Assembly: GCA_016906335.1 (NCBI GenBank)
Contig: JADEYG010000003.1
Coordinates: 62,001 to 126,000 of the forward strand
DNA: 64,000 nucleotides
Direction of reading: 5' to 3'
Source: Novakomyces olei
Lineage: Eukaryota
Shown: one piece after another, positions 8,291-39,856 of the stretch
Layout: each line of letters begins with the position of its first letter
Position numbering within the stretch: the first letter of the stretch is position 1
Position numbers and translations under genes: made by a program
The notes under the pieces: generated by a model
Databases searched by the model: none
The model's input: only the letters and a program-made list of their open reading frames with translations
Told to the model about the DNA's origin: nothing

Positions 8291-8821
8291 ATGGGTGAAG
8301 GCATCTTTAGCCAGCTTGCTCCGATGGAAACTCGTTTGAGCGCTCAGATTTCTGCAGTGTGCGACGACGTTACTACACTGAGAACACAATTCACGGCATT
8401 TGGCGCAGACCTCAACGGATGTATGTTTGATTTATTATAAATTTAAGTTTTCTAATAAAATCAGTGACTACAACAACAAAGCAAGAGTCGCGAATAGTCA
8501 CATTCGCAATATAACGAGCAGAATTACTCCGTTGAAAGCGCAGTTCACTAACACTGCCATTGTCGATTTCCCGATAACAGTTCATGAACTGAATTCTTTG
8601 AGCAGTAGGTGTTTAGAGCATGGGTGTTTTTTTTATTAATATTTTTGGGGAAGGTTTGCTTTTGGTTTTCTTTCAGTTTAGTCGCTACATTGAAATTTAT
8701 TGATTTTGGCGTATTTGAATGTAAAAAATTCGGAGCATATCATTTCCTGTGGCCACAGAGTCGAAAAATACGTAAAGCTATACCTTCATTGTTTGCAAAA
8801 CTTTCGCATATTTGCCGATAA
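8291..8821 (+). pseudogene. Degenerate paralog of the DUF1773/Mug135-like gene at 18737-19427
   Basis: Middle exon 8465-8604 reads DYNNKARVANSHIRNITSRITPLKAQFTNTAIVDFPITVHELNSLS, flanked by CAG| and |GTAGGT at the same positions and phases as in the 18.7-19.4 kb gene. Exon 1 (donor GTATGT at 8421) and exon 3 appear out of frame. Confidence 0.6.
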
Positions 8822-9279: not shown

Positions 9280-12200
9280 CTATTTATTCCTCCTACCCGT
9301 CCTCAATCGGCGCCACAAGTGAGAAGGGGATATGCGACGGAGCAGATCATGTTCACGAATCCATGTGAAAATGTACGCCAATGAATAATTAAAAACAACG
9401 TATGCCAGGAGAATACCAAAATTCCGCCATTTCGTCCCTGGATCGATCGGAATCTGACCAAGGTACTCGCCGCCAATCCGGTAAGCGCAATAGTCGCAAG
9501 AGTCCTGGCCAAACGGGTTCACCAAATATCCAGAGGCCCCAGCGATCCAATCGCCAGCAAAACTAGTGCAAGTCTCGCCAGGAGGAATCAAGAACCTTTG
9601 TGTTTCCATTGCGGTACATTCGACTCGACGATTCTTCAAGAGGGTCCCGATAACACCCGAGGTATAATAATACATGGGTGTCAGGTAGGGCATCCAGTAC
9701 CGCCAAAAGACAGGAATCAGCCGGATCCGCTGAGTGACGCCAGTGAAGAGGTCATACGTAACCAAAATCAAGGGCACAACTTTGCTCATGACGGCAAAAG
9801 ACGGAGCAATCATAGAAAACGCTAGGGCCAGGCTATTGATGTAGATCAAAAGTGTAAGCAGCATCAAAAAGCTATACCCGCTCACGCTGGCGGCCACAGG
9901 CATGCCCATGGGAAAGTACCAGAGGACCCAGTAAAGTGTAGCTGTCAGGATACCATACGGCAATTCGACCACAACTATTCCAGTAACAAAAGCTGACCAA
10001 TGGTAAACTTTAGCCGGCCGCTCTCGCGCCACATAGACCTGTCGTAAGTCTGTGTACTTTGCGATAAGCGTAAAGAGCAATGCAGCAGGAATAGTAACAA
10101 TCATAAAGGCAGCAAAAAGGATCTTTTCCACACTCAAAATAGACGCGTCCAACCGGAAGAACGTAAAGCTGACAATAATTGCCTCAAAGCAAGCAGTAAA
10201 CACTTTTGAAAACGTATACTCTGCATCCCGCCAGTAATTACGAAAGAGCCGTAGGGTTACATAGTACATTTGAGTCCACAATGAGGCAGCAAACTCGCGT
10301 GAGTCGTCTCCTCCTTTTCCAGATTTCGTTGTGACTGTGTACTTTGCTTCCTCTAATGAGCAAAGCTGCTGCTCTACCGCACTCGACTCGGCCGATACTT
10401 GCCACGCATCTGCCGCTGAATGAGCAGATTTGCCACCGTGAGCTGTATCAATCAGCATATCTGCTTCATTGCCAGTTGAAGGTCGGGCCAGGTACTGCGG
10501 CACTTGGCCGCGGTCACCGAAATAAACAGTCCGGCCGCCACTGAGAGCCAGGACCCGGTCGAACAGGGAGAAGAGCGTAGCACTTGGCTGGTGAATGGTA
10601 CAGATAATGGCCAGTTGCCGGCTGTCTGCCAGTTTCCTCAGGAATCGGACTATATTATACGCAGACTGGGCATCCAGCCCGGACGTTGGCTCATCCAGAA
10701 ATAGTAGACAGTCCGGCCGGGAGCATAATTCGACACCAATAGTGACTCGTTTCTTCTCCTCCACCTGCAAAGTTTCAATTTCCGCGTCTTTGATATCTCG
10801 CAGCTCGAGTAAATCAAGCAGTGACTCAACTGTCTCCAATTTTTCCCGTTGGGAAACGTGGGCTGGCTGGCGCAGCATGGCAGAAAACACAAAGGCCTCT
10901 TCCACACTGGCCTTGCCGTCATGAATATCCATTTGCTCACAGTAAGCAGCTGTACGAGTGAAGGCTGGAGTCAGTGGACAGCCGTCAAACAGAATTGAAC
11001 CCTCTATTCTGCCCAGGCCAGAATTTCGTTGCGCCAGAGTGTTTAGGAGCGTTGTTTTCCCAGCACCAGAAGATCCAATTAGCGCTATCATCTCCCCGGG
11101 TTTAGCCCACCCATTTACACCGGAAAGAAGACGCCTAAAATCGCCATTAGGCAGGGCCACAGTCAGTGAGAGATTGTGCCACGTAAAGACATGTTGAGGC
11201 TGATCCAGATTGTCAATAGCTTTATTTTCAATAGCTTTATTTTCAATAGCTTTATTGTCAATAGCTTTATTTTCAATAGCTTTATTTTCAATAGCTTTAG
11301 AGGCAGGTCCCCGATTCTGGCGGCTTGATACACTCTCTTTGCCAGAGTGCGTCATGGCTTTTGCACTGCCATTGACATTATCGGTTTTGTTTCCTTCTTC
11401 CCTGCTTGAGCTGCCATTCGTCGTTTTAGTATTTGGACTAGTAGTTGCCTTCTCCGTATCTGAAGTAGAATTCACCTTTAGATTGTCCTTTGTGTCTCCT
11501 CGGGTTTCAATATCCCGAGTCTTCTGCCTCCGTACGAGCTCCAACGGCCTCGGACCTGAGTGTACAAACCTGACCCGCTCAAGAGCCACGATTTCAATCA
11601 CAATATAAGCCACCGTCCAGGCAATCACAATGCCGAAATTCCGCCAAATATGATGGGCCGAGTACCCATACCGCAATCCCACATACTCTGAGCCCCTTAC
11701 AAAGGCCTCGCCCGGCCGAGCTCCAGTGGCAGTGCAAGTCTGATGCTGCAATGTGTAGCGCGGGCCCTGTGGGACCATTGCGTCTGGCGTACAGGCAAAG
11801 AGCTGTCCCGAGTACTCGTTCGCCATTACTGCCTCATAAGCAAATCCGATAGGATCCAGGTACTGGAACCATCCGAACCAGGGCACTCTGCTCAACATTT
11901 GGTTTTTAGGGATAATATACCCCATAAACACGAGGCACGCGTCGAGGTAAGCTACACAGTACCTAATAGCCACAGGGAAACTTGGGCTCAAAGCCGCAGC
12001 ACATCGGTAGAGGCAGGTTAAGCATAGTGTAAGTACGTAAACAAACACGTAATAAGTAAAGAAATGACCTGCTGTGCGCTGGAAATTGCACATAAAATAA
12101 GCAATAATGGAAAACAAAAAAGTCTGAATAAAAAGTAACGGGATATCCACAAGGACCCGGCCGAGGGCGACTGCTGCTGGCCGGTAAAAGGCATAGGCCC

Positions 12201-13854
12201 TGTGCCTTTCGTATATTTCCCGGCCTTCAAGGATCGTATCCAGCTCTCCCAATTGAACCCATCCGGTATACAGCACTCCCAAGAAAAGAGCACCTCCACG
12301 TGGGAAGAGGTAGTCTGTTGTGGGCTGCATATTATAAAAAACGCTGCCCATCATAAGCGCATTTACGATGTTTAGGCCCGTTTTGGCTGCGAGTGCGTCC
12401 CTGTCGCCAAGCGTAAGCCAAAGCTGACGTTTTGCACACAGATAAACTTGCCAAGGTAGGGATACGGTGTAAGCAGAAGTAGCAAACCTCGACTTTTCCA
12501 TGTGCAGATAATTTGTCGCCTGCTTTTTATTGTTTTTCGCGTCGGCTACTGGTGCTTCTTTTGCGTACATGGTTATGCTCTCGCGGACTCTGCTATAATA
12601 CTCAGACCCACGGAAAGCCTGAGCCAGAGCTGTGGGAGTAAGCGGCGGTGAGCCGTGGTAAACCCGTTCATTGACGTCTGTTATACCCGTCAGAAAATCA
12701 GCTGCGTTCTGTCCCGGATGACGTACGAAGCCGAGCTGGCAAAAGTATTCTAGAGCCGCTGCAGGTGATCCGTAAAAGATTTCTTCGCCCTCATACAAGA
12801 GCATAATCTTGTCGGTCAGCTCATAAATATCATCAGACGCCTGGTACAGTGTGAGCACAGTCGTCATGTTTCGGCAGTCTGAAAGAACACGCAGACTCTT
12901 CACATAATCAAGCGCAGTTGCCGAGTCGAGACCGCGTGTAGAATTGTCCCAGCACGTTATGGTGGCACGAGTAAGTAAGCTCTCAGCGATAGAGAGCCGT
13001 TTCTTCTCTCCGCCAGAAATGCCACGTATAAATTCGTTGCCCACTGGTGTCGAGTAAATGTGGTCAATACCAAACATTTGCAGGAGAGAGTTTACGGTCT
13101 GATTGATCAAGTGCCGATGCCTCTTTGGCAGTTTAGTAGAGGCAGCAAACTTGAGCGTTCGGCCCACCGAAAGCACGGGAAAATGCTGATCATCGGCACC
13201 GTTGTAGATAACCTCGCTCCTATACTTGCGTGCCATTGTTGTGGCAGAAAGGCCACCGTAACTTATGTTCCCATTAACGGCACCATACTCTGCGTGCTGC
13301 AGGGCTATAGTCCGCAAGAACGTGGAGCAGCCGGCGCCTGGTTTGCCCAGGACAAGCAATATTTCTCCCGGATTGACTACACCACTAATATTGCGAATAA
13401 TAGGCGCTAATTTGGCATTGGTTCCGCCGAAGGGTGAAAGCTTCCGCACTAGATGGTAAAAGTCTAGACCAGAAACCGTAAGCCATATCGCCTTGGCAAA
13501 TGTTTTAGCAGGCACTGAGTGTGTACGCTCGCCAAGCACAGTCAAATCGTCAAAGGAGACTCCAAGAGCATGATCCGAAAATTGTGGGATCTGCTCTACG
13601 AGACGCGTAATTTCACCAAACACTGGCGTAGACTCATACTTTTCAATAGCGTTCGTCACGTGAACACGCGGCTCTTCCACAACCGTGCCCCTGTCGTCGT
13701 CAATTACATCATCGTACTCTTCCTGCGGCCATAAGGAATCGCTGTCCGGCGTGAACCGTTTGCGGGGCTCTGCCGCTATCGCTGTTCCGCTAGACGACGG
13801 GTCGTCTGAGGCAAACAGCGAGCTGCTTGAATGGCTGAAATAAGGTGGAGGCAT
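9280..13854 (-). CDS. Full-size PDR/ABCG-type multidrug ABC transporter (Snq2/Bfr1-like)
   Basis: 1524 aa with NBD-TMD-NBD-TMD order. NBD1 Walker A GKPGAGCST and signature ISGGEKKR. NBD2 GSSGAGKTT and LFLDEPTSGLD. PDR_CDR-type extracellular loops. Confidence 0.96.
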   Translation of the reverse strand: MPPPYFSHSSSSLFASDDPSSSGTAIAAEPRKRFTPDSDSLWPQEEYDDVIDDDRGTVVEEPRVHVTNAIEKYESTPVFGEITRLVEQIPQFSDHALGVSFDDLTVLGERTHSVPAKTFAKAIWLTVSGLDFYHLVRKLSPFGGTNAKLAPIIRNISGVVNPGEILLVLGKPGAGCSTFLRTIALQHAEYGAVNGNISYGGLSATTMARKYRSEVIYNGADDQHFPVLSVGRTLKFAASTKLPKRHRHLINQTVNSLLQMFGIDHIYSTPVGNEFIRGISGGEKKRLSIAESLLTRATITCWDNSTRGLDSATALDYVKSLRVLSDCRNMTTVLTLYQASDDIYELTDKIMLLYEGEEIFYGSPAAALEYFCQLGFVRHPGQNAADFLTGITDVNERVYHGSPPLTPTALAQAFRGSEYYSRVRESITMYAKEAPVADAKNNKKQATNYLHMEKSRFATSAYTVSLPWQVYLCAKRQLWLTLGDRDALAAKTGLNIVNALMMGSVFYNMQPTTDYLFPRGGALFLGVLYTGWVQLGELDTILEGREIYERHRAYAFYRPAAVALGRVLVDIPLLFIQTFLFSIIAYFMCNFQRTAGHFFTYYVFVYVLTLCLTCLYRCAAALSPSFPVAIRYCVAYLDACLVFMGYIIPKNQMLSRVPWFGWFQYLDPIGFAYEAVMANEYSGQLFACTPDAMVPQGPRYTLQHQTCTATGARPGEAFVRGSEYVGLRYGYSAHHIWRNFGIVIAWTVAYIVIEIVALERVRFVHSGPRPLELVRRQKTRDIETRGDTKDNLKVNSTSDTEKATTSPNTKTTNGSSSREEGNKTDNVNGSAKAMTHSGKESVSSRQNRGPASKAIENKAIENKAIDNKAIENKAIENKAIDNLDQPQHVFTWHNLSLTVALPNGDFRRLLSGVNGWAKPGEMIALIGSSGAGKTTLLNTLAQRNSGLGRIEGSILFDGCPLTPAFTRTAAYCEQMDIHDGKASVEEAFVFSAMLRQPAHVSQREKLETVESLLDLLELRDIKDAEIETLQVEEKKRVTIGVELCSRPDCLLFLDEPTSGLDAQSAYNIVRFLRKLADSRQLAIICTIHQPSATLFSLFDRVLALSGGRTVYFGDRGQVPQYLARPSTGNEADMLIDTAHGGKSAHSAADAWQVSAESSAVEQQLCSLEEAKYTVTTKSGKGGDDSREFAASLWTQMYYVTLRLFRNYWRDAEYTFSKVFTACFEAIIVSFTFFRLDASILSVEKILFAAFMIVTIPAALLFTLIAKYTDLRQVYVARERPAKVYHWSAFVTGIVVVELPYGILTATLYWVLWYFPMGMPVAASVSGYSFLMLLTLLIYINSLALAFSMIAPSFAVMSKVVPLILVTYDLFTGVTQRIRLIPVFWRYWMPYLTPMYYYTSGVIGTLLKNRRVECTAMETQRFLIPPGETCTSFAGDWIAGASGYLVNPFGQDSCDYCAYRIGGEYLGQIPIDPGTKWRNFGILLAYVVFNYSLAYIFTWIREHDLLRRISPSHLWRRLRTGRRNK
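11211..11298 (-). repeat. 15-bp coding tandem repeat, (KAI[E/D]N)x6, in the ABC transporter linker
   Basis: TCAATAGCTTTATTT/G repeated six times. Confidence 0.95.
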
Positions 13855-14557
13855 TGCAGAAACAGCTTTGTCCCGGCTCCTGCCTGCTTCAAGCTTGGGA
13901 GCTTCAAGTGCCGCTTCCCGTGGGACTTTGAAAACACTCTAATACGAGAATGTACAAGGGACACAGATGAAAAGTAAATTATGCCGACTCCTTCTCGCCT
14001 TTGTCTCTTCAAACTATTGGAAATAATCGAACCGATCGACTACATCACCGTCCCCAACTGCACGATACACTCTTAAATAAACTTCGTATTTATAGCTTGG
14101 AAATATGGTAAATCAAAATTTTATGTTTAAACACGAAAACCCTATGAATCTTAAACGGGCAGGTGCCCTCCTGTCACTGGCACCTTCCTAATACGTATAG
14201 CTTCTTTGAACTTTAAAGGCAGGTGCCGGCAACGCTGTATGACGATCAATGATTGATTACATAGCGATCCCCACCGCAAGTAACGTTCCAGGCTATATTT
14301 CAGACTATAGTTTGGCGGCGCGGCACAATTTACTAGTGTATAATTTATGCAAATGCCAGCGCGTATTTATGTACGTGTCAATGGAGCTGTTTTGAGCGGT
14401 TTCCCATTAGTTGACCGACGTTTGCAGTGAAACAACGTAATTCTTAGTAGAAGGAACGTCAACCGGTAAGTCAGGGTGATCAAGTCGTTCCGTAATTGGG
14501 TCGTTTCGGTGGCTATACGACGTATATGAGTAGCGTGCAACTGCGTAATTTACCGTC

Positions 14558-15738: not shown

Positions 15739-17438
15739 GATATTTTTGGAGCGGCGATAAAGCGGCCAAACATTCTGTATTGCGTGCGGAGACAGTTTGA
15801 GTGACAGGTTCACGCAAATTTAAAGCTTTAAAGTTAGACAAGACCGCGATGGTTTTTGACTTACCTTATACGTCGCCGACGTATATCTCAGTACTCTAGG
15901 CACTGTATACAAACTCTGAAACTTTTGTCGTGTTATACTCCAACCTGAGTTGGCGTACTAGTTCACTAGAACGTAAGCAATAGGGACAGCAAAACAAAGA
16001 AGAAGAAAAAAAAGCAAAGAAACGTTTGGAAGACAAAAAGTAAAAAAAAGAGCAAGAGTCAGAAATAGCCATTGAAAGATCATGACAGACACATATTAAA
16101 CAAAAAGTGCTGAGTTAATCGTCAAATTGGTTTGCCTACCAGAATCAAAAAGTAAAGTACCAGTGTCCACTTTGCTTTTTGTTTATTCACTCTCTTATCG
16201 GCTGTTGCTTTAACTAAATGAAGCGGTAAACTGACTAGTAAATAGCTTTTCTCTTGTCAAACGTGTTCTTTTCGCCTTCTTGTCGAACGGCCAGCTGTGG
16301 TTTGTCGGAGGTGTCAATTTCAATAACTCTTGGCTTCCTTCGCCAATGCTTTATAGGGCGGAGCCAACTGAATCGTGATTTGCACCTGATAAAATCAGTG
16401 GAGAAATGGACCTTTTAGGGAAGAGATACGGTGCTTAAAGTAATTGTGTTTCCGAAACGATTCATTCAGAATTCTGATCGGACGATAAGACATACTAACA
16501 AGCCTAAGCCTACATTAAAAGAGTCGCTAAAACAACAAACTAAACTTGCTCGACTAAACAGTGATCAACTGCACGTTGTCACAATTAAATTATTGCGAAA
16601 AGAATTGTTCGTTTGCTGAACTCAATTGCTGCTGATGATGTTTGATTATGCTTATACACATTCACCATGGCCCGATTAGGTAGCCGCTGTCATTTGCGGA
16701 GATACGAGATTTCAGTCATATATCTGTCGCTTCCTCTAATATAATGCGCGATAAGAAAAAAACATTAATTCTGTATCGGTACAGCATCATTTATTTTTTC
16801 TTCAGTGTGCTCCAATTAAATAGTAATTTTAACACTAAATTCCTGCCAACGAGGAGTAATTCATTCAGCAACCGTTTGGCCCGCGTCATTGCACGTTTAT
16901 GTGCAATGTAGGCTAAGATATTTGTAATTCAAGTAATACATGCTACCGTCCACCCGGCTAGGGCCAGATGAAGAGCCAATTTGGATTGTATACGAAAAAA
17001 AGCGATGCCATAAAGAAGCGGTACCGTATTTAACGCGCCTTTATTTAACGCACCTTTTAAACACCTAAATCACAAGACAGGGCGTAAGATTGCTTGGTGG
17101 TAAACGAATGATAAGCAATGAGGTAACGGTTATCAAATATATTATTCTTATACTGCCAAAAGGACCTGTCTGCCTATCGCGAACTGGCGCGTTAATTTAT
17201 CGATATACTTAAATTCACTATACATGAAGTTTCCTTTGATCACAGTCGCGTACGACGTATATATTGCTAATACTATAGAGAACTTATTCTGTAAAATGCT
17301 TCTTGTTTTGTGAAAAGATATATTGAAGATTACTTCTACCAGCATTTATAACAGTTAGTGTTAGCGTAAGATAACTAACCCTAAGCCTAACTTATTCTGG
17401 CTTACTATTGCTGAAGACTAGATAGATTGGCTCCAAGA

Positions 17439-17648
17439 TCAGTCACGAGTAACTGTAATAGCGTCAAGTGCCTTGATAAGGATTAAGTTGGCAATAACTC
17501 GCTCACTCATGCCGGACACTGTGCGATCAAGGCGCTCAATAAGGCTGTTAACATTGTCCTCTATATCGTCAAAGCGCTTATTCATAGCTTTACGGATCAG
17601 CATCAGCTCTTGTAGAATTTCGGCACCTATGTCGATTGGACGCTTCAT
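17439..17648 (-). CDS. 69-aa helix/stalk-only homolog of the DUF1773-like gene (ORF2-A)
   Basis: ATG-initiated and open in both duplicate copies. PIDIGAEILQELMLI resembles PIFDQGANILEQLRLL of the full-length gene. Confidence 0.55.
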   Translation of the reverse strand: MKRPIDIGAEILQELMLIRKAMNKRFDDIEDNVNSLIERLDRTVSGMSERVIANLILIKALDAITVTRD

Positions 17649-17910
17649 GGAGCCAGCGAGGAGACTCGAAAGCTATCTGAAATGCAGTATAATAGATATA
17701 AATTGAATTGATAACACGATAATGCTATCGCCTACGTGTATAGTAGGATTATGAGATAGATCCTTAAACTCATGCTGTTTCGAAAACCGCTATTTCGCGT
17801 GTCCATAATTGCGGCCTTGAAAAACCGAATAGGCTTGCTAAAAATAATATATTGCGATCAGTCAGTTCATAATACGAGTAACTTTGATAGTCTTCAAGGA
17901 AAGCAAAACT

Positions 17911-18198
17911 CTATACCTCAATGCGGATATCGTTGGCAACAGCTCGCTCTCTCATGCCAGCCACTGTGCGATCAAGGCGCTCAATTAGTCTGTTAAAATT
18001 GTCCTCCATGTCGTCAAAGCGCTTATCCATATCGTCACAGCGCTTATTCATATCGTCAAAGCGCTTATCGATAGCGTCACAGTGCTTATTCATATCGTCA
18101 AAGTGCTTATCCATACTGTCAAATCCCTTATCCATAGCCTTACCGATCAACTTCAGCTCTCGTAGAATTTCCGCACCTATGTCGATTGAGGGCTTCAT
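17911..18198 (-). CDS. 95-aa helix/stalk-only homolog with 21-nt heptad repeats (ORF1-A)
   Basis: MKPSIDIGAEILRELKLIG, then KGFDSMD KHFDDMN KHCDAID KRFDDMN KRCDDMD KRFDDME. Tandem paralog of ORF2 with a shared upstream AGCTTTCGAGTCTCCTCGCTGGC. Confidence 0.55.
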   Translation of the reverse strand: MKPSIDIGAEILRELKLIGKAMDKGFDSMDKHFDDMNKHCDAIDKRFDDMNKRCDDMDKRFDDMEDNFNRLIERLDRTVAGMRERAVANDIRIEV

Positions 18199-18736
18199 GG
18201 CGCCAGCGAGGAGACTCGAAAGCTATTTTAAGGGCCCTTGATATAAAGCGAGGGTGACTGATTCATATCACTCTCCGTTAATTTGCTTGCTTGACAACAT
18301 GGAACTTATCTCGGGAATCTTCCCATCTCTTTCAATATTTAAATTTATTAATGAAATGATATCTTATCCACCACGCTTTATGTATTTGGGTAGATCATCG
18401 TATTATTTAATAAAAATTTACTTTTAATCTAATATTCTGCTTCCTGCTATCTGATTGAGACCCTCGTAGTATTCTGTTGTCCTACCATCGTGTTTCAAGT
18501 TTTGTCACGTTTTACAAAGAATAGAAATGACCATTTATTAAATTGCTATGCGACGGCCAGATTAAAGGGGGAAAAAACTAATTAGTTAGAAGCTATCTAA
18601 GATATTCATCAATGCCTGATACGCACTGTTTTGGAAAACAAACGAGAGAAACAATTCGAAAAAACAAATGTAAAACAGAATGAAATCAAAATAAAGCAAA
18701 ATAACAGCACCGTCCAATTGAAGCATTCCTAACTGT

Positions 18737-19427
18737 TCAATCAAATTGCATAAAATAGTCCGGAATGGCGAGCAATCCTAGTTGTTTAAGAAGCTTCTTG
18801 ATCTTATGCTGTCTGTTTCCTCTATCGTTAATTCCCAATTCCATCAGAATACGGGAAACCTCAGAGTCTAAAAATTAATGCGAGAAAGATAATCGACACT
18901 TACAATTCAGTCTTAGAACTTCCTCGTATGTAGTAGGAAAGTCTGTGATCGGCTCTCCAGTACTTTTTGACATAAGTGGCTCGATGCGAGACGATACTAA
19001 TTGTGTACGACAATTAATGACTCGCACAGTGCAATTTTGCTCGCTACACAATGTCGCTTAGTAAATATTAATATATATAAAAACTTTACCTCCTCTCGAT
19101 AGAACTTTCGATTTGAGTGAAACGCTCGTTTATTGCCGCAAAGCTCCCATCGTTGGAATCAAACCGGGCTTCCATGAAGTCAAAGCGCCTAGACAAGTCC
19201 TGAAATTGCCTATCGTGGGCCTCCAAGCGCCTAGACAAGTCCTGATATTGCCTATCGTAGGCCTCAAAGCGCCTCTCACTATTTTCGTGAAGCAGCCTCA
19301 ATTGCTCAAGGATATTTGCACCTTGGTCGAAAATCGGCAAATGTAGCAGACCAGAGACAGCCGTTGCTAGTCCATGAATTTGGCCAACAAGGCTAGTAAA
19401 TTCGGGTCGCAAACTGGAAGAATCCAT
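18737..19427 (-). CDS. 202-aa protein: N-terminal helix, heptad-repeat coiled coil, DUF1773/Mug135-like C-terminal domain; exons 19427-19090, 19043-18904, 18867-18737
   Basis: Two canonical GT..AG introns (46 and 36 nt) join in frame to give ...IERSEQNCTVRVINCRTQLVSSRIEPLMSKSTGEPITDFPTTYEEVLRLNYSEVSRILMELGINDRGNRQHKIKKLLKQLGLL...FD*. Family assigned by eye. Confidence 0.8.
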
Positions 19428-20049
19428 GTTGTTTGGTTGTTTGTGGAACAATAGGGTGTGATTTAAAATTGTGTACTGGCTATCGACGTGCGCTATTTTG
19501 TTTTTTAATATTATAAAATGAGGACGCCCATAACTCGGTGTCAGGTTCGCAAATGCGGCCTTTTTTGCATATATATATTTGATCACTATAGGTGTATGGA
19601 CAAGATAGAAGGAGGGCATTTTGGGTACAATAATGTAGAAATCATGCTTTACACACAGGAACGAATTGATGGCAGAATTTGAATCTCGGGTTCTAAAATA
19701 TTTGAAGATTAATCATCCCACGCAATGACACATTGCAACTATTTACGGCGATGAGCATGCCCGGATTCTATTGGCAGGTGCTATCAAGGATTTTCAACTA
19801 AGTGATACAAGCTATTTACTATGATTTGGATATAATATATGCTCATTTTTTCGCTGTTCGAAATTGATCTACTATTCCTTTTTACCACTTGATGTAAATA
19901 TCCCCAAATTAACCAATAATAATTTTATTTATTTACTATTTAGTACTTGAATACAGCTCGTTAGGTTTGCACCTAAACATTATATCTTAATTATTAATAT
20001 AATTAATTAGTAAATTTATTATATATTTAAGATATTATATACTGTTCAT

Positions 20050-20355
20050 TGAAAGGGCCCTAGCTCAACATCGTGTCATGATAATCTAACATTGGGCGGC
20101 CCCCGGTTTATCTCCTTGTAGCCATTTAAACCACTTACTTAAAAGGGATTCTTATTGGAAATGGTATACAAAGGGAACGAAAGATGCATTTGCTCGATCG
20201 CACGTTGTCTATGAAAGGGACCCATTATCCCATAGCTTTACGTAATTTAATATTGATTTTAGTGCTTTGAAACTATTGTTGATTCGAGACGCCGTTATCC
20301 TATAGTTTCGCCTATATTGCAATAGCGCTGCTATCTTGTTTATTTCGATAAGGAC
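20050..20355 (+). mobile_element. Possible degenerate Ty3/gypsy integrase fragment (mirrored at ~30814-31110, minus strand)
   Basis: Across frameshifts: CHDNLTLGG-PG...HLLKRDSYW...AFARS-HV, then PII...FT*FNIDF. This resembles the HHCC zinc-finger region and the start of the integrase core. Confidence 0.35.
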
Positions 20356-20741
20356 TGTGTTGAATTATTTGAAGTTATGTTGAAGTTCGAACGGTTGATA
20401 TTAACTATCTGACTGTAGAAAAGAATGTTAAAGGTCCCCCAAGGTTCAGAGGCGCTGTCAGGGATATATATATATATTATTCAATAATAGATCTGGTAAA
20501 GACAGAATGTAGAAATTAGAGGAGATTTCAGTAAGTAAAGTAGAGACAGAATTATTCATGTAAGACAAGTGATTATTTCAAATAATAGAGTTAAATATAA
20601 GTTATATACTAGCTCATCGATTGGATTTTTTAAGGCTTGGTAGTTGAGAAATTATTCAAAGCAATACTTTTCTATGGCAGCGCTCTATGGAAAATGCAAA
20701 ACGCGAAAAATAAAAACTTAAATGATCAAAAACGATCTGGT

Positions 20742-22134
20742 CTAAGAAAACATCTTCGAATAAGCAGCGCGCTCTCGTTTCTTTTGATCAGCCAGACGCT
20801 GTTTGACAGTTGTTAGTTCACGTTGGATGGCAGCATCGCCCGGGGCAAGCTTATCTGCCTCCTCCAAATCTTTCAAAGCAGCTTCCAACGTTCGTGTTTG
20901 AATCATCGCAGATCCCCGCCGGTACAATGCCTTGGCCTTATCCGCTGCGCTGATTTTTTCATTATCAAGAGCGCTGTTAGCAGCGTTAGCGGCATCTTGC
21001 CAACGTTCCAATTTGAGATAGCACAATGCCAAATTAAGAGCACTGGAAGTGGCAATGGCAGCCAACTGTGAGTTTGCTGCAGCATCTTCGCTAGAATCAG
21101 ATGGTACAAAATCTGCAGTATAGCGGATAGCCTTTTCATACTTTTGCGCTGCCTCTTCCAAGGCTCCTTGCTTAAATAAAGCATTTCCGTACCCCTTAAT
21201 ATCATTTGCTGCTTTAAGCAAATCCGCAGCATTTCTTTCACCCGTGTGGTCTTGAGGATAGTCTTCGTACGAGTCACCAGAAGCGTCCGACGCAGATGGA
21301 ACATCTTCGTCAGGCGAAAGTTCGCCGCAGTCCTCAATGGTAACATTATTGAGTGGATGATCTCCACTGTCGGTTTTGGTAGCCTCAATTCGCCGTACTA
21401 TAGACTTGCCGGCGATCACACGACCAAACACGACATGTTTCCCGTCCAAATGAGGTGTCTCCGTTGTAGTAATAAAGAATTGGCTGCCATTTGTTCCAGG
21501 ACCAGAGTTGGCCATACTCAACAAGAAAGGCTGGTCATGTTTTTCCTGGAAATTTTCGTCGTCAAATTTTTGGCCTACTTGTCAGTATTGGGTTTTCTTC
21601 TTTCCTCAATCTAGACTAAATTTTGTCTTTAATCTTCGTCCACTTGTTCCATTTCCCTTTTAATTTCAACTTAAAGCTCGCTTGTAGACCCCTTGTTCTC
21701 TAATTTCCAAGTCTTACCATAAATGCTCTCGCCACCAGTACCGTTGCCGGCAGTAAAATCACCGCCTTGAATCATAAACTGAATTGTTAGTGGCATCAAA
21801 AATATGGCACACGCTCAAGCCAAGTCGCTTGTAATACGAGGTAAAAAAAATATATGCTGTGCATCTAACACTTACATTACGAATAACGCGGTGAAAAGAA
21901 CTGCCCTTGTAGCTCAATGGCACACCACTGCTACCTGTGCCCTTTTCGCCCGTACATAGAGCCCGAAAATTATCTGCTGTTCGTGGAACAATATCAGAAT
22001 AGAGTTCAAAATACACGCGGCCCAATGTCTGACAATTAACAAAATGGACCAATATCCAAGTCTTTGTGTAAGCTTACCTTTCCGCCCTGAGCAATTTGAA
22101 AGTACACGCGCGGTCGTGTGCTTATTACTGCCAT
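20742..22134 (-). CDS. CPR6: Cyclophilin-40 type PPIase with TPR domain (4 exons)
   Basis: [80 protein letters not shown], and a TPR tail (KAKALYRRG...AAYSKMFS). Confidence 0.95.
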
Positions 22135-22285: not shown

Positions 22286-22454
22286 TATTCGTATTAATAT
22301 TATAATATTATAATATTCTCAGTTTATAATTCATAATCTAGCACCTTCTCGCCTTACAAATCAATCCCACGCAATAATTATAATATTATTAAAATAATGT
22401 TATTATTATAAAAATAATAATAATAAAGCGCGCAGTTTTCGACAAACTGAAGCA

Positions 22455-23345
22455 ATGTCGGAGCAGGATTACAGAGTCAAAGCGACTTTCCGTGGAAAAT
22501 CCTTCGAATACAGACTGCCCTCGGCGGACGCAACAGTTGGCGATTTACGTGGCTTGTTAGCGCGTGATACACAGACGCCGTCGTCGCAGCTTAAATTACT
22601 ATACAAAGGCCGACTCGATGACGACACTGCCAGTCTTGCGTCGCGTATTGCCTCTGGCGCCACGGTGATGGTGCTGCTCTCTCCAAGCGCAGACCAAGTA
22701 ATGGTAATGAACAAGAACGCGGCAAAAGCTGTCGGGGACAGGTCTAAAACGGGTGCACGGCCGTTTACTCGCAGTGCCTCTTCAGTGAGCCGTTTGCCCT
22801 CCATTTCTTCGCCTTTTACGTTTAACGAGATCCGGACTCTGCCCGGGTTGCCCCGGCAACGGGAGGCTCAAGCCTACTTGGAGCGCTTACGCGACGACGC
22901 CGGGATCCGTGGGATTATGAAAAAGTACGCGTGGACGGTTCCCGTCCTGTCTGAACTTGATCCCGCGGCAAACACGGAACATGGCGGCAAGATGTACCTC
23001 GGCTTTAACGTTAACGCCGGCTCGGAGATACAGCTCCGTATCCGGACCGACGACTACTCTGGGTTTCGGCATTATCCGACAGTGCGATACGCTCTGCTCC
23101 ACGAATTAACCCATAACCGGTTCGGCGATCATGACGCGGCCTTCCATCGGTTCTTGAACCAGCTGGAACGTGACGTAATCGCTCTTGATCCGTACGGAAG
23201 CGAGGGCCATTCGCTGTCGCGTGTACCGGCTGTTGCTGTGGACGAAACGGATGCTGACGTACGCGAACAACGACGGGAACTAGTACGGCAGGCGGCTTTG
23301 AAAAGGCAGCAAGACCAGAAACCGACAGAGCCGCGGTCGGATTAG
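22455..23345 (+). CDS. Ubiquitin-like domain plus WLM metalloprotease (Wss1-family)
   Basis: N-terminal UBL (QLKLLYKG), WTVPVLSELDP, LGFNVNAG-EIQLRIRTDDYSGFRHY, and the HELTH zinc motif. Confidence 0.9.
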   Translation: MSEQDYRVKATFRGKSFEYRLPSADATVGDLRGLLARDTQTPSSQLKLLYKGRLDDDTASLASRIASGATVMVLLSPSADQVMVMNKNAAKAVGDRSKTGARPFTRSASSVSRLPSISSPFTFNEIRTLPGLPRQREAQAYLERLRDDAGIRGIMKKYAWTVPVLSELDPAANTEHGGKMYLGFNVNAGSEIQLRIRTDDYSGFRHYPTVRYALLHELTHNRFGDHDAAFHRFLNQLERDVIALDPYGSEGHSLSRVPAVAVDETDADVREQRRELVRQAALKRQQDQKPTEPRSD

Positions 23346-24079: not shown

Positions 24080-25709
24080 TTACGAAAAATTGAACCGACG
24101 CGAGGCGAGATACGCGGCAAGTGCGACCAGTAAAATAAGCCCAAGCACACCGAAAAACCAGCCTAGATTTTCCACGCTTTGTCCAGGCACCTGCACATTC
24201 ATACCAAAAAGGCCCGTAATAACGTTCATGGGCACAAGCACGGTACCAAGCAGTGTTACCCGGCCGAGCAACTCGTTTATACGGTTGTTGCCGCGAATAG
24301 CGTCGACAGACAAGTAAGCCAAGTAATTAGAATGAGAGCGGGACAAGATCTTTTCAAACTGCGACAAGGACGACGTCATTGTGATTAAATGGTCCTGAAT
24401 ATCGCCCAGGAACAGTCCGATTTCACCCGTCGGGGCAACGTTCCAATTTTCATTGCACCTTTTGGAAAACATCTTTATAACGTCCGCTTTCCCGTACAGC
24501 AAACGGTACATTTGCATAACATTGCGACGGCACTCGGCAATTCTGCGCAGTAATTCTCCGTTTTCATCGGCCCTCGCCAAAAGGACATCGTCCTCAATCG
24601 CGTCTGTTTCGTGTTCAATGTACCTGATCTGTGGAACAAACTCGTCGACAATATTATCAATTAACGCATAAGAAATCCAGTCGGACGTAACATGCACATA
24701 GTCACGCAGCTGACGGATCCGCCGCCTTACATTTGCTGGGTGCGGTGCTGGTGAAAAGTGGAAAGTGAGCACACCCGTTTTGAAGACGACAATGTACATA
24801 TTCAGTGGCTCCAGGTAATCCGGGTCCCTTCGGTCAGAGACAAAAGAACGGAAAGTGATAAAGTAGTAGCCGCGGAAAAGCTCCACCTTTTCACGAGTTT
24901 CCTGTACCCTAATATCCTCAGCCGTCAGCGGGTGGATAGAGAAGGCCTTGGCCAGCATTTTCATCTCGCTGTCGCTAGGCGCAAGCACATCGAGCCACCA
25001 GACTCCGTGGTCGGAGCTGAAAAGGTCACGGACACTGTCTTCCTCTCCCAGCAGATCCTCAAACTCTTGGGCATGTCGAGTCTCATCTACTTTGGACCGG
25101 AAAAGCGAAAATCTGTCGGGAGCAAATTCGCTGTGTGCCTGAGACACTACACGTGCCAGCCGAGCATCAGCAACTGCCTCCCCGTCAGCCATTTTTGCTC
25201 CCAATCTAAATCTGTCGTCTTGCGCATTGCCAATACTAGACTCTCCGTCCCCTGAGGAAGACTGCTTTTCTTTCAAGTCTGACCATTTCTCCTCCATTGC
25301 CTTTCTGTCCGCCCGCAGCGACTGCAAGTTGGGCATATCCAGTGCTGGAGGCTCAGTCACAGGAACGGCCATACTGTAATTGCGTGGACGCTTGAAGCTG
25401 ATGCTGGATCCACGACGCAGCTTCTTCTTTCTCCTCTCCTGCCGCTGGACTTTTAAAAAGTGTTCGATTTCATCAAAGTCAATATCACTCTCGTTCTCCG
25501 ACTCTGAGTCCATTGGGAAACAGACATCGCCAGAGGCTCCGTCCGAGTACTCTCCGTTTGAATTCAGCCGCGAAACTTGACTGTCGACAGAGTTTCTGCT
25601 CGAGGTATCATCAATTGCATGTTCCAAGTCGGGCCTGTCCGTCAGTCGGACTTTGGGAGGTTTTATTGTACTCGTTCGCCTTTGCGAACTGGACCCGGGC
25701 ACGGGTCCA

Positions 25710-25756
<47 letters not shown>

Positions 25757-26260
25757 GTTTGTACTGTCCGCTCTACGCGAAACTGGGACGGCCTCTCCGT
25801 TTTCGTCGGAACTGGAAGACGACGACTGTTCTTGTGGGTGGAGATCATCAAACCCGCTTATAATATCAGCGTCTGAAGCCTCGAGGCCGTCAAAAACAGG
25901 AGACGCACCAATCACGTGCTGGCTGCTTTCCGTAGAGAATACGGGATGGTTATGATTGCTCTCGCCGTCTCCGTCTTGCTCGACTGCCTCTTCGGCCCGA
26001 TCATTGGCAAAAACTGGTTCGCCAGCACTAGCTGAACCGGCCGAGTTCGATCGGGCCCGGCTAGCGCTGCTGCGTGAGCCGGCACGTGCTACACCAGGAG
26101 CCGGCACGTGCAAAAGATCCACACGGTCCATGCTTGATCGCGAAAGAGCACGCTGCTGGGCTCGATGGTCCAGAATATCAGGTGTCCCCGGGTTTCCTCC
26201 CGGGTTTCCCGCCGGGTTTCCCGGTACAGCGGAAGAGCTTGTAACGTTTCCCGGTGCCAT
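24080..26260 (-). CDS. ALR1: CorA-family Mg2+ transporter, Alr1-like
   Basis: WWLDV, AFSIHPLTAEDIRVQETREKVELF, and the GLFGMNV signature with two C-terminal TM helices. Contains a (GCA)14 poly-Ala tract at 25712-25753. Confidence 0.93.
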
Positions 26261-28728: not shown

Positions 28729-30273
28729 TTATTTGGACATGCTATCGCGGAAACTTTGAGAGCTGGCGCTCATTGTCCGCTGATTAGCAACTGGCAACGT
28801 TGCGGTGCGTGAATTTTGCTTGCTTTGATTCTGCTTGGCCACAGCGTACACAATCCCTGAAACAAATCCAATGGCAATCGCGGTAATAGAAAACATTGTG
28901 ACGGGTGCATCAAAAAACACAATGCCGGCAATAGCGATAGGAAGTTTGTTCAAAGAGCCCACAAAGCTATAAGTAGTAGAAGACGTTACCCGCACACACC
29001 AAGCAGAAGTGTAGGAAATGCCCACAGTAGACAAGCCGGAAAAGATCATCGACCAGATTACGGCCTGACGATGATCGGGTGGGAAGTTTATATCAACGTT
29101 CTCACCGCTCCAGTCCTCCATTAATATCGAGCAAAGTAGTAAAACAGGGACAGTGAGCAAATTGTTGTAGAACATGGCTACATCGTATCAGTACGTTTAA
29201 GATTGAAATAACAACAACAGTAAAGGTAATAATGTTTTCACGAGCTACTTACTGTCGAAATCTTTAAAGTTGGTAAGTTTAATCCGCTTGCGCATTCCCA
29301 ACACGTACAGCGCAGTAGTAACACAGTTTGAAAACATCCAAATGTATCCACTACTCAGCTGAGCAAGAGAATTTGCCTGTTGGGAGGGATTGGTAAAAGA
29401 GGAGATGACGGCTTGTACGTCGGCCCAGGCTGCAATCACGGATGAAAGAACCATAAGTCCAAAGGAGAATAGAGTCAATCCCGTGACGGTCCCTCCAAAC
29501 CACAATACCTCGCCGTAGGCAATCAAAATTATGGTCAAATTTTTGAAAATGGTGTATACCGGAATAGACAGGTACTGCAGACTTTCAGAGTTAGCGACAA
29601 CTATCCAGCTTTCAATACTTACGCTTTACTGCTTGTGTACGTCATCAATACCAGAAGCAGCGAAATAGGGAACCCTAGAAGCATAAGCAGTGTATTGAAT
29701 ATTAATCGACATACACTTTTTGGCCTCCGCCACATCAAAATCGCGAAACGTGATAACTTTGAATTGTTTGCCGATTTGAATTGCCATTACGGCGACGAGA
29801 GACTAGAATTAGAGTACTGTTGGCATTGCAGAAAGGACTCATTAATTCTGTGATCAATCGCTTAAAAGTACTCGGAAAATAATTTGCTTAATTGATTAAA
29901 GGAAAAGATTAGGAAACAGAAAAGAATACAGATGAATAGAGTCTGACACAATGGAAATATATAAACGCGAACAGTCAAGAAATGATTAGCCACGTACTTG
30001 AATCATAAGAAGGAAGAAGTTGAGATTAAAAGTGCCCGACAGCACATATTTATTGGTGGTTGTCATGAGAATCGATGCAATACAATAGCTTAATACAGGA
30101 ACCAGAGGATTGCTGATTATTAGTATAGTTTAATTATCTAAACCCTACTTGAGAAAGTGTGAAACTTCGGAAGAGAAACCAGAAGCCTTTGCTGGCCGGT
30201 AGAGATCATCGTCAACAGGTTCGTTTGTCGAGAACGTCGAAAGTTTGATATTGTCCTCTTTTGCATTGGCCAT
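28729..30273 (-). CDS. VRG4: Golgi GDP-mannose transporter (multi-exon)
   Basis: Exons translate to [68 protein letters not shown] and [21 protein letters not shown] (GALNK-type motif). Confidence 0.95.
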
Positions 30274-31711
30274 TATCGTGTTTGATCCTTTAAAAGATAT
30301 TTAGCGCTGTTTGGTTGTCTTTAACTCACTTTACGCCCAAAGACGCGTTAGGTACAGAAATGATCAGTAAGGCCGTTTAGACCGGTAAATAATCAAGCGC
30401 GAGACTAAATCGAGAGCTGGATCAAATTATATGCCAGATACAAGTCAGTTTTGTTCTGACTTATGAACCTCAAACCAGCCGGATTGAAGCGATTGATACG
30501 AGTTATCTGGTGTTTTGCAACTGTTTTCGTGTTTTGCTCGGTATTATATGTATTTTTTGTCTATTATCTTACATTACATGCGAAAGTTCAATGGGACAAA
30601 TTCTTTATTTTGTGCGCTTAAATCTACGGCATATTGTGCTAACCTAGCATAGACGTTGGGTCGCTGCCAATATCATATATTATAGATCAAACAAATATAT
30701 GTTGCCTAAAGTTTATAGTATAAATTTTATATAAAATAGTAATATTTAATATTAATATATAATATGTATGTTAGGACCCAAACCAATATTTGAATTAAAA
30801 CCTAACTATCCAATCCTTATCAAAATAAACAAGGTAGCAGCGCTATTGCAATATAGGCGAAACTATAGGATAACGGCGTCTTGAATCAACCATAGTTTCA
30901 AAGCACTATAATCAATATTAAATTACGTAGAGCTATGGGGTAATGGGTCCCTTTAATAGACCACGGGCGATCGAGCAAATGCATCTTTCGTTCCCTTTGT
31001 ATACCATTTCCAATAAGAATCACTTAAGTGGTTTAAGTGGCTACAAGGAGATAAACCAGGGGTAGCCCAATGTTAGATTATCATGACACGATGTTGAGCT
31101 AGAGCCCTTTCAATGAACAGTAATATCTTAAATATATAATAAATTTACTAATTAATTATATTAATAATTAAGATATAATGTTTAGGTGCAAACCTAACAA
31201 GCTATATTCATGTACTAAATAGTAAATAAATAAAATTAGGTGGTAAAAAGGAATAATAGATCAATTTCGAACAGCGAAAAAATGAACATATATTATATCC
31301 AAATCATAGTAAATAGCTTGTATCACTTAGTTGAAAATCCTTGATAGCCACCTGCCAATAGAATCCGGGCACGCTCATCGCCGTAAATAGTTGCAATGTG
31401 TCATTGCGTGGGATGATTAATCTTCAAATATTTTAGAACCGAGATTCAAATTCTGCCATCAATTCGTTCCTGTGAGTAAAGCATGATTTTTACATTATTG
31501 TACCCAAAATGCCCTCCTTCTATCTTGTCCATACACCTATAGTGATCAAATATATATATATATGCAAAAAAGGCCGCATTTGCGAACCTGACACCGAGTT
31601 ATGGGCAGAGAATGGCCTCATTTTATAATATTAAAAAACAAAATAGCGCACGTCGATAGCCAGTACACAATTTTAAATCACACCCTATTGTTCCACAAAC
31701 AACCAAACAAC

Positions 31712-31903
31712 ATGGCTTCTTCCAGTTTGCGACCCGAATTTACTAGCCTTGTTCGCCAAATTCATGAAATAGCAACGGGTGTTTCTGGTCTGCTACATTT
31801 GCCGATTTTCGACCAAGGTGCAAGGTGCAAACATCCTTGAGCAATTGAGGCTGCTTCACGAAAATAGTGAGAGGCACTTTGAGGCCTACGATAGGCAGTT
31901 TCA
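31712..31903 (+). pseudogene. Disrupted copy of the DUF1773-like gene
   Basis: MASSSLRPEFTSLV... A 7-bp duplication CAAGGTG (31814-31827) frameshifts to TGA at 31838. Most of the stalk and both C-terminal exons are deleted. Confidence 0.9.
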
Positions 31904-32071
31904 TAAGATATCATTTCATTAATAAATTTAAATATTGAAAAAGATGGGAAGATTCCCCAAATAAGTTCCACGTTGTCAAGCAAGCAAATTAACGGAGAGT
32001 GATATGAATCAGTCACCCTCGCTTTATATCAAGGGCACTTAAGATAGCTTTCGAGTCTCCTCGCTGGCGCC

Positions 32072-32275
32072 ATGAAGCCCTCAATCGACATAGGTGCGTA
32101 AATTCTACGAGAGCTGAAGTTGATCGGTAAGGCTATGGATGAGGGATTTGACAGTATGGATAAGCACTTTGACGACATGGAGGACAATTTTAACAGACTA
32201 ATTGAACGCCTTGATCGCACAGTGGCTGGCATGAGAGAGCGAGCTGTTGCCAACGATATCCGCATTGAGGTATAG
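32072..32275 (+). pseudogene. Disrupted ORF1 copy (ORF1-B)
   Basis: GAA>TAA at codon 10 (32099-32101). It is 84 bp (4 x 21 nt) shorter than ORF1-A. Confidence 0.8.
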
Positions 32276-32533
32276 AGTTTTACTTTCCTTGAAGACTATC
32301 AAATTTACTCGTATTATGAACTGATCGCAATATATTATTTTTAGCAAGCCTATTCGGTTTTTCAAGGCCGCAATTATGGACACGCGAAATAGCGGTTTTC
32401 GAAACAGCACGAGTTTAAGGATCTATGTCATAATCCTACTATACACGTAGGCGATAGCATTATCGTATTATCAATTTAATTTATATTTATTATACTGCAT
32501 TTCAGACAGCTTTCGAGTCTCCTCGCTGGCTCC

Positions 32534-32740
32534 ATGAAGCCTCCAATCGACATAGGTGCCGAAATTCTACAAGAGCTGATGCTGATCCGTAAAGCTATGG
32601 ATGAGCGCTTTGACGATATAGAAGACAATGTTAACAGCCTTACTGAACGCCTTGATCGCACAGTGTCCGGCATGAGTGAGCGAGTTATTGCCAACTTAAT
32701 CCTTATCAAGGCACTTGAGGCTATTAGAAGTTACTCGTGA
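32534..32740 (+). CDS. 68-aa helix/stalk-only ORF (ORF2-B), intact
   Basis: Near-identical to 17439-17648. It is the only open cassette ORF in copy B. Confidence 0.55.
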   Translation: MKPPIDIGAEILQELMLIRKAMDERFDDIEDNVNSLTERLDRTVSGMSERVIANLILIKALEAIRSYS

Positions 32741-32791
32741 CTGATCTTGGAGCCAATCTATATAGTCTTCAGCCATAGTAAGCCAGAGTAA

Positions 32792-32811
32792 GTTAGGCTT
32801 AGGGTTAGTTA
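32792..32811. promoter_or_regulatory. TTAGGG-box variant (GTTAGGCTTAGGGTTAGTTA) upstream of the phosducin-like gene; duplicated at 17372-17391
   Basis: About 225 bp upstream of the ATG at 33036. Confidence 0.5.
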
Positions 32812-33035
32812 TCTTACGCATACACTAACTGTTATAAATGCTAGCAGAAATAATCTTTAATATATCTTTTCACAAAACGAGGAGCATTTTACAGAATAAG
32901 TTCTATAGTATTAGCAATATATACGTCGTACGCGACTGTGATCAAGAAACTTCATGTATAATATAATATAGTGAATTTAAGTATATCGATAAATTAACGC
33001 GCCAGTTCGCGATAGGCAGACAAGTCCTTTTGGCA

Positions 33036-38400: not shown

Positions 38401-39856
38401 ACCTGTCTCCGCCAGGACCTGCACTAGCGACACTGCGATAAGACGCTGCTGAAAGCGAAAAGGCGCCAGGGTAGAACTCGGCAGAAGCGTGTAGTGGAGG
38501 CGAGACAGATCCGGGTCCGTTTCCGGGTCCGTTACCCCCACCAGTGGCCCCCACTCCCACTCCTGCCCCCACATTGGCCCCCACTGTGGCCCCCACTGTG
38601 GCCCCCACTGCTGAGCCTACTCCGACGGGCTGTTGGTGGTAGCTGGGAGGAGTTGAACTGCTCCGCAGCAGCGACGGGTCCGACTGGCTCAATGGCTCAA
38701 CGAGCTTTGAGTAAAAAGGCCGATGAGACTCGGCAGAGGCAAAATTTGCAGTTGCTGGGTGCCGCAGACTATTGTTGCCATAATCCATATGACTGCCCTG
38801 TCCAGAATCGCTGCCGTGATGGAGCACGCCTCCGGCTAAAGGCAAGCCGGACATGAACCGGGACCGGCCCCGAGCAAATATATCCTCGTCCACTGGAACA
38901 GACGAGGCAGAGGCAGAGGCAGAGGCAGAGGCAGAGGCAGTTGCTGCTGAAGCAGCTGAAGCAGAAGAGGCAGAGCTGGTCAGAGCAGCTGCGGCTGCCA
39001 CAGGCGAAGAGCTCGTCATATCGTCCAGCCGGGAGTGAGGAGCAGTCACAGTCCGCTGCCGCCGAAGAAACGGGTCCAGGCCTTGGAAAGTGCTGTTTAT
39101 GGCATCCACGTTTAGCGAGGATGTACGGTTACGATCTGTGCTGTTTATAATCGGCCCACCAGCCGAGGAGTGTGGTCCGCTAGCGTAAAGGCTGCCGTTA
39201 GCGGCAGTACTGTTGTTTGTAGCAGAATTGCCCTCAAAGAGCGATGAGGACGAAGACGCTGAATGGTTCCTCTGGTGCGAAGTATAGGGCAGCTGCTTGC
39301 TCGAGGCAAAAGGCGAATTTGCAGAGTCGAGCAGGACTCCTGCCAGCGCCTGTGACGAAATGGAGGACGATGCTGGTGACGAGGGAGGTGGGAGGGAGAA
39401 AGCGTCACGTACAGCCGCAAAATTATCGTGTCTTGTGGCCGAGTGGACCATAGAAGACTGGAAACGAGAAGGCGATCTGCTGGCAGAGGAGGTAGTTGAT
39501 CCTCCTCCCACATTGTTTAGTGCTCCCACATTGTTTAGTGCTCCTGAAACAGTCCCGTTTTGCGGTACATTTGGCCCGCTTTGGTCTCGAGGAGAGCTGC
39601 TGCCCTTTTTGCCGCTGCTGTTGTGGCTGCCTGGTCCACGAGAAGAATTGGGTACGGATCCAGCTGCGGGCCACAGGTCGGGTCCCGAGTATACCCTTCC
39701 GAGTCCCTCGCTGCCGCTGCTGCTACTGCTGCCTGCGGCATTTGCTGTTGCCGGCGCAGAGGCTGCGGCCCACGGCCGTTTCGGCGAAGCAGAGGCCGCA
39801 TGTGGCCAGTCGCCGCCGCCGCCAGCAGACACGGGCTGGCTCAAGTTCGAGGCCAT
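35426..39856 (-). CDS. PUF3: Pumilio/PUF RNA-binding protein (Puf3-like) with a very long low-complexity N-terminus
   Basis: C-terminal PUF repeats: [84 protein letters not shown]. Confidence 0.93.

Follow-up and report, generated by a model that had tools for sequence, protein, structure and literature searches.

A candidate three-exon gene for a Tdk-shaped coiled-coil protein in a small, partly decaying fungal gene cluster

We analysed a 64-kb stretch of fungal DNA, referred to in its entirety as the window, and found that the minus strand at 18737-19427 carries what we read as a real and probably protein-coding gene of three exons. It would be the sole complete copy in a small local cluster, partly decaying, that belongs to a lineage-restricted fungal family, a reading to which we assign a probability of roughly 0.55. 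With odds likewise slightly better than even, its product is a lineage-restricted, oligomeric coiled-coil protein that presents a small C-terminal domain. The preliminary description of this DNA had proposed a member of the Tdk1/Mug135 (DUF1773) family and, with it, a candidate killer meiotic driver. Our sequence searches do not support this step: the shape is Tdk-like, and homology to the DUF1773/Tdk family is undemonstrated.

The minus-strand coding sequence of the gene, including its stop codon, fills the interval exactly and is divided into three exons (Table 1). When the exons of 338, 140 and 131 nt are joined by their coordinates with a script, the resulting 609 nt form a single open frame that encodes 202 amino acids. 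Both introns (46 and 36 nt) have canonical GT-AG ends, and the codons that span the two splice junctions encode Ser and Tyr. The two-intron, three-exon structure given in the preliminary description therefore stands, as a model read from the DNA. Intron 1 contains TACTAAG, a branch-like site. Intron 2, at 36 nt, is short for this window, since the introns inferred elsewhere in it measure 40-48 nt. Exon 1 lies in a stop-to-stop frame of 208 codons, in DNA with a GC content of 38%.

Table 1. Positions of the gene, its relatives and the surrounding features in the window
Feature	Position	Strand	Description
Exon 1	19427..19090	-	338 nt; ATG at 19427; 112 codons + 2 nt; ends in phase 2
Exon 1 product	19090..19427	-	predicted N-terminal helix and heptad coiled-coil stalk
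Tandem repeat in exon 1	19180..19274	-	42 bp x 2.3; 92% matches; score 169
Intron 1	19089..19044	-	46 nt; GTAAAG...TACTAAG...TAG; phase 2; from sequence
Exon 2	19043..18904	-	140 nt; ends in phase 1; first half of C-terminal domain (N..R..N, I.PL, TGEPI.DFPTT)
Intron 2	18903..18868	-	36 nt; GTAAGT...TAG; phase 1; in-frame TAA; from sequence
Exon 3	18867..18737	-	131 nt; TGA stop; second half of C-terminal domain (LMELGI...G.R..KIKKLLKQLG)
Diverged paralogue	8291..8821	+	137 aa; short stalk; tentative exons 8291-8424, 8465-8604, 8682-8821
Left arm of inverted duplication	17154..20357		carries the gene cluster
Right arm of inverted duplication	30811..33035		about 3.3% substitutions plus indels
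Truncated exon 1 duplicate	31712..31913	+	right arm; frameshifted
Stalk-only ORF, 95 aa	17914..18198	-	exon 1 homologue; 55.1 bits, E 3e-16, 24/75 identical
Tandem repeat in 95-aa ORF	18005-18136		21 bp x 6.3
Second stalk-only ORF, 69 aa	17442..17648	-	E 4.6e-3 to exon 1
Right-arm copy of 95-aa ORF	32102..32275	+	N-terminus out of frame; most 21-bp repeats gone
Right-arm copy of 69-aa ORF	32480..32740	+	E 7.5e-4
Cyclophilin-TPR gene	20742-21581		between arms
Ubiquitin-WLM protease gene	22398-23345		between arms
CorA gene	24080-26260	-	between arms

The gene has a diverged paralogue within the window. Exon 2 matches it at 8466-8603 (+) with 34.7 bits (E 4e-10, 16 of 42 residues identical). When paralogue and gene are compared over their length, 33 of 123 aligned positions are identical (27% overall), and all three exons are open in the paralogue. 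The GTAGGT donor of its second intron agrees with the GTAAGT of intron 2 in both aligned codon and phase, and its first intron coincides with the position of intron 1 only if a weak GTTTGA donor is accepted. Between exon 3 and the third exon of the paralogue BLASTP finds no similarity; for the second half of the domain, the evidence of conservation is thus limited to short blocks, which pair both by eye and in MAFFT (LMELGI/FIDFGV, KIKK/KIRK and AIPDYF/AIPSLF). A three-row alignment was considered as an aid to folding and dropped, as the third exon of the paralogue was misplaced in it. A six-frame search with a profile made from both known copies of the C-terminal domain revealed no third copy in the window (best other match E 1.6). 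Taken together, the 208-codon frame, the match of exon 2 to the paralogue, the matching intron positions and the three open exons of the paralogue, along with matches of exon 1 to four other ORFs or copies within the window, confirm at the level of sequence comparison that the three-exon gene is real and more than a chance ORF.

The 202-aa product has a helical N-terminus followed by a repeat-bearing heptad stalk, and ends in a C-terminal domain of ~90 residues that starts where the stalk helix ends. The exon translations thus bear out the three-part layout that had been proposed (N-terminal helix, repeat stalk, small C-terminal domain). The 42-bp repeat of exon 1 encodes 14-residue RRFEAYDRQYQDLS units, and the heptads listed in the preliminary description (RRFEAYD RQYQDLS RRLEAHD RQFQDLS RRFDFME ARFDSND) were found in exon 1 over this repeat. 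Of the C-terminal pattern given there, the motifs N..R..N, I.PL, TGEPI.DFPTT and ELG....G....K are present in exons 2 and 3, whereas the dot spacing from N to I.PL was a few residues short, which is immaterial.

Structure modelling bears on the stalk. Modelled as four copies, exon 1 scored 0.73, compared to 0.45 for the best of three controls. Among proteins of known structure, 21 of 30 one-chain pairs and 0 of 23 single chains attained the mark applied to the four-copy model, in a calibration that was made with two copies while exon 1 was modelled with four, and in which passes by coiled coils may reflect memory of solved structures. Three runs share at least 91% of their contacts, with a partner pLDDT of at least 79. 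Over residues 9-111 the chains contact each other in register (64:64, 71:71, 78:78, 92:92 and 99:99), which indicates a parallel bundle; these residues form one continuous bundle in the four-chain model, with no separate N-terminal domain. Thus, the modelling supports a stalk that would form a parallel coiled coil. For the C-terminal domain, an AlphaFold2 model of the read-through from exon 2 across intron 2(X) into exon 3, calculated without an alignment, reached a mean pLDDT of only 41.2 (pTM 0.30) and is therefore too poor for a fold search.

The cluster lies in one arm of an inverted duplication. Aligned over 2217 positions, the arms differ by substitution at 74 of them, 47 times by a transition and 27 times by a transversion, and 49 columns hold indels. 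RIP-type mutation as the cause of these differences was ruled out by the proportion of transitions to transversions and by the equal GC content of the arms. In the right arm, the exon 1 duplicate is shifted out of frame by a 7-bp duplication at 31814-31830, and it has no counterpart of 18368-19242, the segment with the remainder of exon 1 and the whole of the other two exons. Over the 185 nt that it shares with the gene there are ten substitutions, seven of which are non-synonymous and three synonymous, and constraint on exon 1 is therefore not demonstrated by this comparison. Each arm also contains a pair of short ORFs with homology to exon 1, which amounts to four stalk-only ORFs in the window. 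The number of stalk repeats is unequal between the arms, and the difference between the 95-aa ORF and its right-arm copy is a case of repeat slippage in coding DNA. In the 64-kb window we count seven loci of the family, three of them visibly damaged. The multi-copy, decaying nature of the family, as it had been described, is therefore well founded, in the form of a truncated, frameshifted duplicate and of stalk-only ORFs that differ in repeat number.

The gene might itself be a non-functional relic, either a recently dead family member or a frame without a product whose splice sites are leftovers or chance. This would fit the damage at three of the seven loci, such as the truncated, frameshifted duplicate or the right-arm stalk ORF from which start and repeats are gone, and also the 7 to 3 ratio of non-synonymous to synonymous changes between gene and duplicate, the very short intron 2 and the outcome of the protein searches, in which homologues elsewhere were not found. 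We nevertheless regard it as rather unlikely. The three exons are all open and together form one frame of 609 nt in AT-rich DNA, and the signs of decay are seen in the damaged copy and none of them in the main copy. In addition, the paralogue, though only 27% identical, has three exons in open frame and introns at the same places. That so diverged a copy retains its frame is hard to explain otherwise, and it argues for a coding capacity that has been under selection for long.

The two arms, of ~3.2 kb, flank a 10.4-kb core of housekeeping-type genes, which recombination between them could invert. Pfam matches of the large ORFs of the window are to Fungal_trans_2, copper amine oxidase, a PDR-type ABC transporter, CorA, PUF, WD40 and formin, and further ORFs match cyclophilin-TPR, ubiquitin-WLM and sugar transporter families. 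No tRNA or Rfam matches were found in the window. The accessory context claimed for the gene is unsupported, because the 10.4 kb between the arms hold core-type genes; the neighbours (cyclophilin-TPR, ubiquitin-WLM protease, CorA, PUF, WD40 and formin) are of the housekeeping or core type.

Several of the other genes have features of their own. The WLM domain shares roughly half of its residues with S. pombe SPCC1442.07c. The ORF for the PDR/CDR-type ABC transporter (9280-13938, -) is intronless and comprises 1552 codons, and the linker that joins its halves carries a KAIENKAIENKAIDN... peptide repeat. The PUF (Pumilio) protein (35426-39874, -) is ~1480 aa long, and its first ~1100 residues consist nearly entirely of low-complexity runs rich in Q, N, H, S and G; the GC content at this gene is 53-59%, compared to about 44% for the window. 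The sugar transporter gene (44326-46288, +) is interrupted by short introns. A sugar-transporter pseudogene at 45101-46288 was ruled out, as the two in-frame stops lie inside an inferred 48-nt intron (~45554-45601). Two adjoining ORFs at 28729-29625 (-) presumably resemble a GDP-mannose (Vrg4-type) nucleotide-sugar transporter; Pfam assigned no family to 28729-29187 at E ≤ 0.001.

The Tdk family, to which the gene had been assigned, is described in recent reports. Its defining features are a Z-shaped N-terminal domain, a conserved PP linker motif, a long helix and an IPR013902 domain (PMC12930445). The Pfam domain of Tdk1 consists of the last 8 residues of the stalk and 65 residues of the C-terminal domain (PMC11551393). 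The tdk genes contain internal repeats and show a signature of many genes per genome and frequent pseudogenisation (PMC12930445). IPR013902 is recorded there in Schizosaccharomyces (not S. japonicus) and in some Saccharomycotina, Basidiomycota and Mucoromycota, and in 0 of 832 Pezizomycotina species (PMC11551393, PMC12930445); remote homologues are named from Debaryomyces hansenii and Botryobasidium botryosum (PMC11551393, PMC11551426, PMC12930445).

The gene resembles this family in several ways. In its product, a helical N-terminus leads into a long stalk that contains internal repeats and is oligomeric in the model, and the small C-terminal domain follows where the stalk ends; the long helix directly before that domain, a feature of Tdk proteins, would be present here as the oligomeric stalk. 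Several copies, many of them broken, occur in one region of the genome, as shown by the seven loci and their damage. At the sequence level, in contrast, the likeness was not found. The Pfam profile of the family, PF08593 (Mug135_C), has 82 positions and a curated cut-off of 23.8 bits. The HMMER comparison suggested in the preliminary description gave no match to it at E ≤ 10 for any of nine pieces, four from the gene and five from the paralogue and the stalk ORFs, in hmmscan runs in which the HMMER filters discard most matches above an E of about 0.1. The only families listed in these scans were sub-threshold coiled-coil ones. Each piece was either an exon translation or exons 2 and 3 read through intron 2 (with X), which inserts 12 intron-coded residues. 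This negative result is thus not decisive, because the domain was scanned in halves or with an insert, and a member that scores near 23.8 bits could be lost.

Searches of the PDB sequences point in the same direction. Tdk1 is deposited in the PDB as 9JA6, according to PMC11551426. It was not returned at E ≤ 10 by phmmer with the read-through, by hmmsearch with a two-sequence profile of exon 2 or by phmmer with exon 3, and the best match of the exon 2 profile was a ClpP (E 1.3). Moreover, neither the three exon translations nor the splice-junction codons contain a Pro-Pro dipeptide, and the PP linker motif is therefore lacking. Finally, the product is much smaller than Tdk1 (202 versus 357 aa), and its two introns are a further difference from Tdk. 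On these grounds the proposed membership in the Tdk1/Mug135 DUF1773 family is not supported. We give true remote homology to DUF1773 a chance of about one in five.

The stronger proposal, that the gene is a very remote, Pfam-invisible member of the Tdk/DUF1773 (IPR013902) superfamily and a present or past single-gene killer meiotic driver, whose product would change from a harmless oligomer into a toxic assembly as Tdk1 does, is in our view very improbable. The layout, in which the last turns of the stalk already belong to the C-terminal domain, agrees with it, as do the several copies and pseudogenes within a single 64-kb window, which recall the tdk signature, and the Pfam search of halves or of a domain with a 12-residue insert leaves room for a missed member. 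Against this, PF08593 is absent from all nine pieces, including the most conserved half of the domain from two paralogues, Tdk1 was not returned from the PDB, the PP motif and a separate N-terminal domain in the four-chain model are lacking, the protein is short and the neighbours are of the core type. The odds are lowered further by the finding that most of the tdk members tested do not drive; in the preprint, six further genes were assayed and showed no activity (PMC12930445). We also see very little likelihood that the gene founds a Pfam-invisible branch of Tdk-like single-gene drivers, within a fungal lineage that has none annotated, in which the stalk repeats would set the oligomeric state and the stalk-only ORFs would serve as co-assembling decoys or antidote-like modifiers.

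No known family claims the product: Pfam returned coiled-coil noise, the PDB matches have E values of 0.3-1.3 and the Protein Atlas gave nothing usable. Two of the chance-level PDB matches deserve comment. The only PDB matches of exon 3 in phmmer are to the SAM domain of tankyrase-1 (5kni and 5jti, E 0.88 and 1.1), in an alignment of exon 3 LMELGINDRGNRQHKIKKLLKQL that covers only about 23 residues. The similarity concerns the helix-loop-helix stretch L.ELGI...G.R..KI..L, and the longer pattern L..L.Y.EV...L..LGI...G.R...I..L is one that we take, by eye, to fit the SAP consensus reportedly set out by Aravind and Koonin in 2000. The product might accordingly be an ordinary coiled-coil adaptor, not selfish, whose C-terminal module is a divergent SAM- or SAP-like one that binds protein or DNA. 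We regard this as unlikely, as the PDB matches are all at chance level, the spacing of the motif is not kept in the paralogue and the Pfam SAM and SAP models gave no match to the gene pieces at E ≤ 10, in scans in which the motif was split since it spans intron 2. Such an adaptor is in any case a variant of our favoured reading of an oligomeric coiled-coil protein and not an alternative to it. The second match is to the GH2 domain of GIPC1 (PDB 5v6b and 7nrn), which aligns with 66-69 residues of the read-through of exons 2 and 3 at E 0.31-0.39. This relationship was rejected as most likely spurious, since its E values are no better than chance and the 12 intron-coded residues lie within the alignment.

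We also searched for relatives beyond the window. With the read-through of exons 2 and 3 as the query, an exhaustive phmmer search against 1.84e9 representatives (2.36e11 residues) gave a single match at E ≤ 0.001, a protein of 770 aa (P0005). It was rejected as spurious, because its tandem-repeat 'NCRCRILSTGEW' units align to the intron-coded 'NCKCRLS'. Word-indexed searches of longer proteins produced 85 candidates for the read-through and 40 for the exon 2 alignment, none of either at E ≤ 10, and such a search at near lengths produced 11 candidates for exon 1, none at E ≤ 1. In metagenome scans, 0 of 160 and 0 of 168 pattern matches were confirmed, and the Protein Atlas, queried with exon 2 and with exon 1, contained no usable match. 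No literature on the present gene family was found, and a nameless sequence family can hardly be searched for by words.

The weight of these blanks depends on what they could have detected. The paralogue within the window, at 34.7 bits, would have an estimated E value of several hundred in 2.36e11 residues, so that the search of the large library was unable to detect it. The species itself is probably absent from the protein collection, because an exact look-up of two intronless ORFs of the window, for the amine oxidase (4378-6405, -) and for CorA (24083-26260, -), found neither among 15 billion proteins. The blanks are thus weak: a score at the level of the paralogue would go undetected, the species is probably unrepresented and the queries were exon-wise pieces only. 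Lineage restriction of the family, which these sequence searches suggest, is accordingly weakly founded.

For the favoured reading, a lineage-restricted coiled-coil protein encoded by a real three-exon gene, the following picture can be proposed. A helix of residues ~9-111 would assemble as a parallel, in-register homo-oligomeric coiled coil with a core rich in aromatic residues, and 14-residue tandem repeats would in part set its length. Slippage of these repeats may then cause the stalk to differ in length between copies. In the end domain of ~90 residues, a helix-loop-helix motif (L.ELGI...G.R..KI..L) would come after a conserved loop (I.PL....T...I.DFP.T). As the stalk would bundle three or four chains, several C-terminal domains would be presented side by side, and their clustering could allow multivalent binding of a cellular partner, possibly on chromatin. 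The neighbouring stalk-only ORFs could encode proteins that co-assemble with the full-length one. The structure of the gene, its paralogy, the repeats and the decay of copies are shown by the sequence, and modelling supports oligomerisation; in this picture we infer the expression and splicing of the gene, as well as the partner and the cellular role of its product.

The case of this gene illustrates that layout alone can mislead the assignment of a protein to a family, and that short genes split by introns are hard to place from exon-wise translations alone. The tdk family has been argued to be ancient and patchy in a 2025 preprint (PMC12930445). If the gene were a true remote relative of Tdk, it would widen this family of drivers and offer a compact, 202-aa version for study. 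The cluster is also a clean example of a fast-evolving family of repeat-bearing coiled-coil genes whose birth and decay are visible, in the form of an inverted duplication, a deletion, a 7-bp duplication and the gain or loss of repeats.
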